Source: an uncultured Flavobacteriales bacterium
GTDB taxonomy: Bacteria; Bacteroidota; Bacteroidia; Flavobacteriales_D; JABDKJ01
DNA: 64,000 bases
NCBI GenBank assembly: GCA_964609215.1
Contig: CAZSQZ010000009.1
Span: forward strand, 16,394 to 80,393
Reading direction: 5' to 3'
Under the pieces are notes generated by a model, which saw only the letters and a program-made list of their open reading frames with translations, made no database searches and was not told the origin of the DNA. Below are positions 33,194 to 33,394 of the stretch, one piece after another. The position numbers and the translations under genes were made by a program. The first letter of the stretch is position 1; each line of letters begins with the position of its first letter.

Positions 33194-33394
33194 TGTCTCT
33201 TGTCGGATTCGAACCGACACTCTCATAATTAAACGAGCAGATTGGCTCTAAATTCGCTTCCCTACTTTATTAAATATATTTCGGTGCTTCTGCAAACTCT
33301 ATCCTTCCGCAGGCGAACTACGACCGGCATCATCCAATCACTACATGGTCTGAATCAACTTTTACCATAGCACTTCCTTTTATGCTAAAGAGAC
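33194..33394 (-). ncRNA. 201-nt tRNA-like RNA with canonical ends and a ~126-nt internal insertion
   Basis: Minus strand 5' part: GTCTCTT / TA / GCAT-AAAAGGAA-GTGC (D arm) / T / ATGGT-14 nt loop-ACCAT. About 126 nt follow. 3' part: GTCGG-TTCGAAT-CCGAC (T arm) / AAGAGAC (7/7 pairing with the 5' end) / A. Hand-folded. Confidence 0.45.

Follow-up and report, generated by a model that had tools for sequence, protein, structure and literature searches.

R1, a family of tRNA-shaped RNAs with a conserved junction domain in accessory tRNA arrays of bacteria and phages

Locus and anatomy of the RNA

The window analyzed in this work is a 64,000-nt stretch of DNA from an uncultured Flavobacteriales bacterium (contig CAZSQZ010000009.1), matched by the JGI metagenome contig LBH21_10000012. 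It is bacterial DNA with a GC content of about 35% and carries genes for UvrA, an extracytoplasmic function (ECF) sigma factor and proteins with type IX secretion system (T9SS) tails. On its minus strand, genes for RtcB, a 244-amino-acid protein and two RlaP nucleotidyltransferases, an array of eight tRNAs, an RNA ligase gene, a tRNA-shaped element of 201 nt, YrlA-like modules and an SPFH/Band_7 gene follow each other in this order. The 201-nt element, which runs from position 33394 to 33194, is the subject of this work. It truly belongs to a large family of such tRNA-shaped RNAs whose structure is well supported; this family, to which we give the working name R1 family, has no match in Rfam 15 and is unannotated in the GenBank phage records. 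R1 is a conserved non-coding RNA family of about 150–235 nt with a tRNA body that lacks a decoding anticodon loop.

An earlier note on this DNA had read from the single sequence an RNA of about 201 nt with tRNA ends, a D arm, a T arm and an enlarged 14-nt "anticodon" loop, located between the ligase gene and the permuted modules. This position was borne out, with the ligase gene upstream and the tRNA-like modules downstream, and all described stems and loops are present (window positions, minus strand). The 5′ acceptor strand GUCUCUU (33388–33394) pairs 7/7 with the 3′ acceptor strand AAGAGAC (33195–33201). U8 and A9 (33387–33386) stand directly before the D arm GCAU-AAAAGGAA-GUGC (33370–33385), and U26 follows it. 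At the place of an anticodon arm lies the hairpin AUGGU-[14 nt]-ACCAU (33345–33368), whose stem has 4–5 bp, or 6 bp counting U26-G51, and whose loop of 14–16 nt starts with UAAAAG; there is neither a 7-nt loop nor a U33. On the 3′ side, AGU (positions 46–48) precedes the T arm GUCGG-UUCGAAU-CCGAC (33218–33202; both within 33202–33221), and the 3′ end segment (33193–33201) consists of the acceptor strand, the discriminator A (33194) and an encoded C74 (33193).

Between the anticodon-position hairpin and the T arm there are 126 nt. They form an extra domain closed by a helix of GAUUGG (33334–33339) with CCAAUC (33240–33245), followed by a small hairpin, P7 (33222–33237), between the extra domain and the T arm. 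Inside the closing helix, the peripheral arm P5 (CCGGUCGUAG-UUCGC-CUGCGGAAGG, 33303–33327) is followed by the junction strand AUAGAGUU with the mini-hairpin UGC-AGAA-GCA (33285–33302), which begins the conserved strand UUGCAGArGCACCGAA. Arm P6 (33261–33284) comes next, with a CC/GG base, a GAAA/(A)AGUA internal loop and then a variable hairpin, and is followed by the conserved single-stranded junction GAAGCGAAUUUAGAG (15 nt, 33246–33260) within GUAGGGAAGCGCrUU. The strand GUAGGGAAGCGC is likewise part of the R1 RNA, alongside the GAA/AGUA motif. From its sequence and from established motif knowledge, the P6 GAA(A)/AGUA internal loop is probably a motif of the loop-E or sarcin–ricin type.

Comparative analysis of the R1 family

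Folded as a single sequence, the element is unremarkable, with a minimum free energy (MFE) z-score of only −1.6, and the case for it hence rests on comparative evidence. In alignment A4, which comprises 54 main-type sequences over 220 columns, RNAalifold predicted 48 pairs, 34 of them with compensatory changes. Over the 54 sequences 97.3% of the cells were paired, compared with 35–45% when partners were slid by 1–3 columns, and the covariation score was 0.683 compared with 0.08–0.12 in the slid controls; none of 500 shuffles reached the observed values. A covariance model of R1 scores the whole window RNA (33194–33394) with 201 bits.

The tRNA-like parts found in the window RNA are conserved and covary throughout this set. 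Conservation of the 7-bp acceptor pairing had been named by the earlier note as its own test, and it held: columns 1–7/213–219 were paired in 99.7% of cells, with double-sided changes at 7/7 pairs. In the D stem, pair 12/24 switches from UA to AU in 19 of the 54 sequences, four of the five T-stem pairs covary, and so does pair 30/56 of the anticodon-position stem (CG in 29, UA in 24). Such changes are also seen in a full-length homolog in Chryseolinea lacunae (nhmmer E 1.6e-16). Its acceptor stem, GGCCUCA/UGAGGCC, differs from GUCUCUU/AAGAGAC of the window at five of seven pairs, all compensated, and compensation is also seen in the D stem and the anticodon-position stem.

The earlier note had regarded the block of about 126 nt as an unassigned insertion, too short for a group I intron and too long for a variable arm. 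It is indeed neither a group I intron, with no Rfam intron match, nor a normal variable arm, but the word insertion does not fit, as the block is the conserved, covarying domain that defines the family. The extra domain is an integral part of the RNA and forms a four-way junction in the window. Its closing helix (columns 63–68/167–172) was paired in 99.4% of cells, with double-sided changes at four of six pairs, and gave top mutual-information scores. Nine of ten P5 pairs, the P6 hairpin pairs 126–128/142–144 and 3/3 P7 pairs covary as well. P5 and P7 are absent from short members, namely L093 (149 nt) and the phage members of Comrade and Alone3 (155 nt), and P5 is hence dispensable. The short members define a minimal core of tRNA body, hairpin with A-run loop, closing helix, UUGCAGArGCACCGAA, P6 hairpin and GUAGGGAAGCGCrUU. 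All subtypes, phage members among them, retain an A-run close to where this loop begins, which reads UAAAAG in the main type, and the loop spans 10–26 nt across members. A mutual-information scan of A4 gave only the nested helices and one tertiary signal, 22/46, and no further Watson–Crick partners. A pseudoknot of the P5 loop (UUCGC) with GCGAA, which fits the window, was discarded, as it is broken in the near-identical sequence L048 and the loop is not conserved.

UUGCAGArGCACCGAA and GUAGGGAAGCGCrUU are near-invariant strands within the extra domain. Metagenomes had been scanned with the pattern GCAGANGCACCGAAAN{10,40}GGGAAGC, which returned 97 stretches, about 14 of them coding coincidences and the rest family members; after definition of the ends, this one scan yielded 74 distinct full-length R1 sequences of 149–234 nt. 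The mini-hairpin UGC-AGAA-GCA is invariant in A4, but this invariance is forced by the search pattern. The junction strand GAAGCGAAUUUAGAG within GUAGGGAAGCGCrUU shows conservation of 85% or more across the 17 members that diverge most. Streptomyces-phage members carry CACCGAAU and hence lie outside the selection by the pattern; both core strands are kept there, which lends unbiased support to core-strand conservation.

tRNA-like core and maturation

Canonical tRNA features present in the R1 RNA are the 7-bp acceptor stem, the discriminator, U8, a D stem with G18G19 and a T arm of the type GTTCRANYC, and the feature missing is a 7-nt anticodon loop with U33 and a purine at position 37. U8, A14, A15, G18, G19, A21, U48 and the T loop are invariant in A4. 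Furthermore, D-stem position 22 covaries with position 46, two nucleotides before the T stem (columns 23/194; GG in 37, AA in 15), as expected from the 13-22-46 base-triple rule of tRNAs, and A15-U48 corresponds to the Levitt pair. Since these tertiary rules (13-22-46, 15-48) and the elbow positions hold, the R1 RNA is expected to adopt the true L shape of a tRNA, from which the extra domain would protrude at the site of a class II variable arm.

All R1 subtypes are found in tRNA arrays. In many loci the R1 RNA begins 4–6 nt after a true tRNA, and in phage Gilson it is immediately adjacent to the tRNA on its upstream side. In 72 of 74 members a C stands next to the discriminator, on its 3′ side, and the type of 3′ trailer equals that of the neighboring true tRNAs in 45 of 47 loci. 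Eight loci encode CCA, and these are the loci whose neighboring tRNAs encode CCA; elsewhere C is followed by an A-rich trailer, as in the eight tRNAs of the window. Because the trailer copies that of neighboring tRNAs and members abut tRNAs in arrays, the R1 RNA probably matures by RNase P and the tRNA 3′-end pathway and would then carry a functional CCA end.

Distribution

R1 members occur in Bacteroidota, in Acidobacteria-like soil contigs, in IMG/VR phages (contigs L054 and L066/L067) and in 22 cultured Streptomyces phage genomes. The family is thus widespread and apparently unannotated. A syntenic, near-identical copy of the window RNA lies in the BBAY60 metagenome (L048). In C. lacunae, a WYL gene precedes the copy, and YrlA-like modules, Band_7 and RtcB come after it. 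Among 47 genomes with an orthologous ligase, C. lacunae is the only one with an R1 RNA, and hence the RNA is not linked to the ligase as such.

In the viral sequences, a first scan (TTTGCAGANGCACCGAAA) gave 13 loci, 12 of which were coincidences in coding sequences. A blastn search of GenBank phages with the window element and L054 gave no matches; it was the phage-type query L066 alone that led to cultured Streptomyces phages. A covariance model trained on 54 relatives, none of them from Streptomyces phages, recovered members of 155–190 nt in Comrade, Alone3, Gilson, Moab and Kela; the Comrade member (NC_048728.1, 80573–80727, 155 nt) scored 81 bits at E 2e-22. A model match in L022 was false and lies in coding sequence. 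In 20 of the 22 Streptomyces phage genome records the R1 RNA falls in an unannotated gap. A "hypothetical protein" coding sequence is placed over it in Moab (gp140, MT114162.1, 82839–83171) and LuckySocke (gp22; OR725497.1 gene 22), and these two annotations are probably mistaken.

Genes and control elements around the RNA

Within the window, RtcB (38641–40026), a 244-amino-acid open reading frame (ORF; 37962–38696), the two RlaP nucleotidyltransferases (36137–37950), the eight-tRNA array (34243–35192) and an Rnl2-like RNA ligase of 212 amino acids (PF09414; 33578–34216, with the gene also given as 33578–34270) lie upstream of the element. Downstream, tandem "permuted" closed-acceptor modules (32834–33013) score below threshold with Rfam YrlA (28.6 and 17.3 bits) and tRNA (24.5 bits) and are followed by the SPFH/Band_7 (slipin) gene (31451–32551; PF01145, E 3e-21; stomatin structures match). 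All these features are on the minus strand. The Band-7 protein is stomatin-like and has no membrane helix when judged by eye. A WYL/WCX regulator gene (40091–41140) diverges from RtcB. Neither Pfam nor NCBIfam gave a match for the 244-amino-acid ORF that separates RtcB from RlaP; it is conserved with 71% identity in the syntenic BBAY60 locus and may be an uncharacterized component of the repair operon.

About 95 nt upstream of the element there is a perfect palindrome, TACGCA-N7-TGCGTA (33487–33505). A second copy with one mismatch (40066–40084) is located in the WYL/RtcB intergenic region, and the same palindrome is also found 40–60 nt upstream of many R1 members. Chitinophaga pinensis has it in the form TGCGCA-N7-TGCGCA (L167, about 4297–4315). 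TACGCA-N7-TGCGTA is likely the operator of the WYL regulator and the start of a transcription unit. As the palindrome upstream of the element is shared with the WYL/RtcB intergenic region, the element probably heads a WYL-controlled unit of its own that would comprise the operator, a leader hairpin, the 201-nt RNA, the YrlA-like modules and Band_7.

Although the contigs are short, main-type members were accompanied by Band_7 in 25 loci, WYL in 21, RtcB in 16 and RlaP in 8. Of the 31 main-type loci with enough sequence, 19 have Band_7 0.6–2 kb downstream (within 2.5 kb) on the same strand. In one IMG/VR phage locus, a divergent Band_7 gene lies at a distance of 4 kb. In the Gilsonvirus phages Comrade, Gilson and Moab, the R1 RNA lies between a Band-7-like gene and an RNA-ligase gene, and in Alone3 it is part of an array that has a Ro-like gene at its end and includes a YrlA-like RNA.

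Four further Band_7 loci were examined in cultured Bacteroidota, namely Chitinophaga pinensis, Niastella, Flavobacterium columnare and Fulvivirga maritima, where the neighbors are some or all of WYL, RtcB and RlaP. None of the four contains an R1 RNA within 5 kb, even with search filters off, so Band-7 does not need the R1 RNA. In three of them, tandem closed-acceptor tRNA-like modules stand directly upstream of Band_7, and Fulvivirga has two ordinary tRNAs instead. The C. pinensis modules reach 40 bits with Rfam tRNA, above threshold, and are also YrlA-like. The permuted modules are built as a repeated series of T arm, looped acceptor hairpin and D arm directly upstream of Band_7, and the tRNA score spans the module boundary; besides those of the window, they were located at 3922–4097 in L007, 4469–4598 in L167 and 2411–3146 in L082 (three modules).

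Comparison with known RNAs

Gathering-level and permissive scans with Rfam 15 over the window and 16 related loci found no family on the element, only a 17-nt match to the tmRNA T arm with 10 bits. The Pedo-repair motif (RF01715), which is known from RNA-repair contexts, did not match. The element does not reach the gathering threshold of the tRNA family RF00005, and default ARAGORN and Rfam runs made no call on it, though they called the eight ordinary tRNAs at 34243–35192; ARAGORN reports the element only in its intron mode.

Like tmRNA, the R1 RNA has a tRNA-like acceptor/T domain, a large internal insertion and presumed maturation by tRNA enzymes, and Comrade encodes a tmRNA as well. In contrast to tmRNA, it has a canonical D stem and lacks a conserved frame, a resume codon, the pseudoknot series and the G3-U70 pair; acceptor pair 3/217 is C-G in 45 of 54 sequences. 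A tmRNA-like tag was rejected because the frame GCA-GAA-GCA-CCG-AAA... varies in length and stops, and its third positions are also conserved. By eye, the core nucleotides also misfit a hammerhead or C/D k-turn reading of GGAUGA.

Class II tRNAs (Leu, Ser, bacterial Tyr and Sec) share with R1 an extra element between the 3′ strand of the anticodon arm and position 46, and both keep 13-22-46 and 15-48. A class II variable arm consists of one short-stemmed hairpin, roughly 10–25 nt in all. In R1, however, the extra domain has about 100 nt and four helices and is accompanied by hairpin P7, and there is no 7-nt anticodon loop.

Another RNA close to R1 is YrlA (RF02553), the tRNA-mimicking Y RNA of Rsr/RtcB operons. 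Both are non-decoding tRNA mimics with a conserved D/T elbow that occur in RNA-repair operons and phages, and YrlA is a proposed RNA cofactor of a scaffold protein. The acceptor of YrlA is looped, however, and the Ro60-binding helix is made by pairing of its 5′ with its 3′ end, whereas the R1 RNA has open ends with a discriminator and C74, lacks a Ro-binding helix and carries a large junction domain where a variable arm would be. With the Rfam YrlA model the element itself gives no match, and true YrlA-like modules adjoin it.

Discussion

The gene neighborhood of the R1 RNA suggests a role in RNA repair. In the window it keeps company with WYL, RtcB, two RlaP, eight tRNAs, an RNA ligase and Band_7, and its operator palindrome is shared with the RtcB promoter; we therefore somewhat favor a function as a stable tRNA mimic that would be a cofactor or scaffold of RNA repair. 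There are precedents for such a role. YrlA/Ro60 and a Band-7-associated tRNA-like RNA have been proposed as repair cofactors (bioRxiv 10.1101/312249), and RlaP adds 1–2 nt to damaged RNA 3′ ends (PMC12776372). In the window, transcription of the R1 RNA would start at a promoter of its own under the WYL operator and would also cover the YrlA-like tRNA mimics and a soluble SPFH/Band-7 protein; elsewhere, the RNA would be transcribed as a unit of a tRNA array. It could then be excised by RNase P at the 5′ end and, at the 3′ end, by RNase Z or exonucleases together with the CCA-adding enzyme. The extra domain might serve as docking site for a scaffold protein, which would be Band-7 in the window and a Ro-like protein encoded nearby in some phages, while the tRNA body and CCA end may recruit or occupy RtcB, the RlaP nucleotidyltransferase and the Rnl-type ligase. 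This would parallel Y RNAs that tether Ro60 to effectors.

More speculatively, R1 could be the RNA subunit of an unrecognized ribonucleoprotein (RNP) that keeps bacterial and phage tRNA pools intact under ribotoxin attack, a proposal that we consider tentative. Here, R1 would be a tRNA-shaped adaptor: the extra domain would plug into SPFH/Band-7 or Ro-like scaffolds, and the tRNA body, the CCA end and possibly the A-rich loop, by pairing with U-rich anticodon loops such as that of tRNA-Lys(UUU), would position broken tRNAs or RtcB, RlaP and ligase. If true, R1 would add a functional class to the tRNA mimics and would be a naturally occurring tRNA-scaffolded RNA module.

Several findings weigh against a cofactor or scaffold function in RNA repair. 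The function is drawn from guilt by association alone, and the window Band-7 protein has no recognized RNA-binding domain. The four cultured Bacteroidota carry orthologous Band_7/WYL/RtcB units without an R1 RNA. Conversely, several phage and Acidobacteria-like members, the latter of the type GGGGAAG...CCA, have no Band_7, RtcB or WYL in the fetched flanks; the common denominator of R1 loci is the tRNA array and not a particular protein. Finally, part of the core is near-invariant to some extent because the search pattern required it.

As to what the RNA is, chance resemblance or a decayed tRNA pseudogene would agree with the lack of a default ARAGORN or Rfam call and with the MFE z-score, but is refuted by the family covariation and by the homologs, including the untrained Streptomyces-phage matches at E 2e-22, and we give this reading practically no weight. 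It is also very improbable that an intron or mobile ribozyme interrupts a tRNA gene here and that splicing, with RtcB as ligase, yields a functional tRNA of about 75–90 nt. RtcB is a tRNA-splicing ligase in other domains of life, which speaks for such an arrangement, and the intron mode of ARAGORN (-i) reads every member as a tRNA with an intron of 60–156 nt (mostly 110–130) that starts at position 31–38 (mostly 31–34), in the window with anticodon UUA. The anticodons are, however, inconsistent across orthologs (tta, tag, tat, tac, ttg, gct, act and others). The anticodon stem required after splicing (columns 28–32/167–171) is paired in just 67% of cells with a covariation score of 0.099, equal to the slid controls, and the local anticodon-position hairpin and the domain-closing helix both covary strongly instead. 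With these inconsistent anticodons and the failed covariation test we rejected the intron-containing tRNA, and a processed product of about 75 nt, which the earlier note had considered, is likewise unsupported, as ARAGORN -i offers the sole splice-like model. Nor does any Rfam intron or ribozyme match the element. Since D loop, A-run of the loop and core are kept in all members, R1 is one RNA family and not a set of different tRNAs invaded by an element. An identity of the R1 RNA with the b7a-tRNA, which would make it an already described but never validated family, is harder to dismiss, yet we still consider it doubtful. According to the account of Wang et al. (bioRxiv 10.1101/312249), Burroughs and Aravind (2016) predicted a Band-7-associated tRNA-like ncRNA beside RtcB. 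As described there, the b7a-tRNA shares with R1 the Band-7 and RtcB niche, a tRNA-like appearance and the status of a computational prediction. That account, taken with the open tRNA ends of the R1 RNA, its vicinity to Band_7 in the 19 of 31 loci and to a Ro-like gene in Alone3, would suit an identity, and an older pipeline could have flagged R1 as a tRNA, as the ARAGORN intron mode does. On the other side, R1 is absent from 4/4 cultured Bacteroidota Band_7 loci, and the modules there fit the wording "Band-7-associated" better. Because these modules adjoin Band_7 where R1 is missing, the b7a-tRNA, in the form given by the citing description, probably corresponds to the closed-acceptor tandem modules, that is, to the permuted modules of the window. 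Going by the same description, the 201-nt RNA family appears to be separate from the b7a-tRNA and undescribed.

Two other functions can be weighed against a part in repair. The R1 RNA might be a decoy or sentinel for tRNA-targeting nucleases, with the A-rich loop soaking up anticodon nucleases or ribotoxins, or with cleavage fragments signaling to WYL; in phages and mobile arrays this would be counter-defense. It would fit that R1 is always in or beside accessory tRNA arrays, including phage arrays without Band_7 in the fetched flanks, and that many loci have R1 as the first product after the WYL operator. A competitive-inhibitor role was also proposed for YrlA's tRNA-like domain (PMC7790460), and UAAAAG is complementary to CUUUUA of the tRNA-Lys(UUU) anticodon loop, a speculative reading of the sequence. 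A simple decoy, however, leaves the strictly conserved multi-helix junction domain unexplained, no nuclease gene is consistently linked to R1 loci, and without U33 and 7-nt geometry the R1 loop is unlike tRNA anticodon loops, so that we regard this function as unlikely. Even less probable is a natural tRNA-scaffolded aptamer or ribozyme, whose junction would bind a ligand or catalyze a reaction while the tRNA body gives processing and stability. Near-invariant junction strands beside helices that covary freely are what catalytic or ligand-binding cores typically show, and the peripheral arms P5 and P7 are dispensable. Yet there is no similarity to riboswitches or ribozymes in Rfam and no consistent metabolic gene context, and conservation of the tRNA tertiary core, together with the CCA-type 3′ end, points to a function of the tRNA shape as such.

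tRNA mimics such as tmRNA, YrlA and viral tRNA-like structures have repeatedly opened new biology. The R1 family joins two poorly understood subjects, the accessory tRNA arrays and the scaffold proteins (SPFH/Band-7, Ro60) of RNA-repair operons. As members are found in culturable phage–host pairs and in C. lacunae, a scaffold-RNA role in bacterial RNA repair is directly testable. In addition, the family shows that a class of genes with tRNA shape systematically escapes the tRNA gene finders.

Further features of the loci

The leader hairpin of the window (33428–33453, minus strand) has 10 bp and lies between the operator and the RNA. In Chryseolinea-type loci (L007, about 4498–4525; L072, L082, L087 and L159), a covarying GC-rich leader stem and then UUUU(GAA) are found 4–8 nt before the RNA. 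This has the look of a terminator or attenuator ahead of a tRNA-like gene.

The 9-bp hairpin that the earlier note had placed after the element is there, at 33184–33161 on the minus strand (CCUCGAGAC-aauuuu-GUCUCGGGG; one G-U pair). Hairpins 3′ of the RNA recur in relatives with changed stem sequences, equivalents being judged by eye. The flanks are kept, in the soil type as ...AAAAAUAUU-hairpin-UAAAGAUCUUCUCC and in the marine type as AAAAUAUCAAGC.GGUCUUGUUG.GUGUUUC.GUAUAGCAC. As the hairpin lacks a U-tract and recurs with conserved flanks, it is no terminator-type element, and this recurrence suggests a further conserved RNA segment (about 33100–33160 plus the hairpin) ahead of the YrlA-like modules.

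The accessory array varies between near-identical operons, with eight tRNAs in the window and ten in the BBAY60 contig (L048, 4909–5991), one of which has the ochre-suppressor-like anticodon UUA (L048, 5655–5728). The array tRNAs all encode C74 and not CCA. In an Oscillospiraceae ligase locus, ARAGORN called a tRNA with a 2-nt "anticodon" (tt) beside tRNA-Lys (L043, 13158–13228); it scores weakly with model R1 (29.9 bits) and may be another aberrant tRNA-like gene.

Ligase homologs with 83% identity occur without an R1 RNA in phage-like contigs of many small ORFs, next to Cpn60/Cpn10 (L050, 6001–6639; L051; L052). The ligase family is mobile between phages and Bacteroidota. The WYL/WCX regulator of C. 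lacunae carries a fused PhyH (2OG-Fe dioxygenase-like) domain at its C terminus (L007, 4569–6368), and C. pinensis has a separate PhyH gene beside RlaP (L167, 8407–9120).

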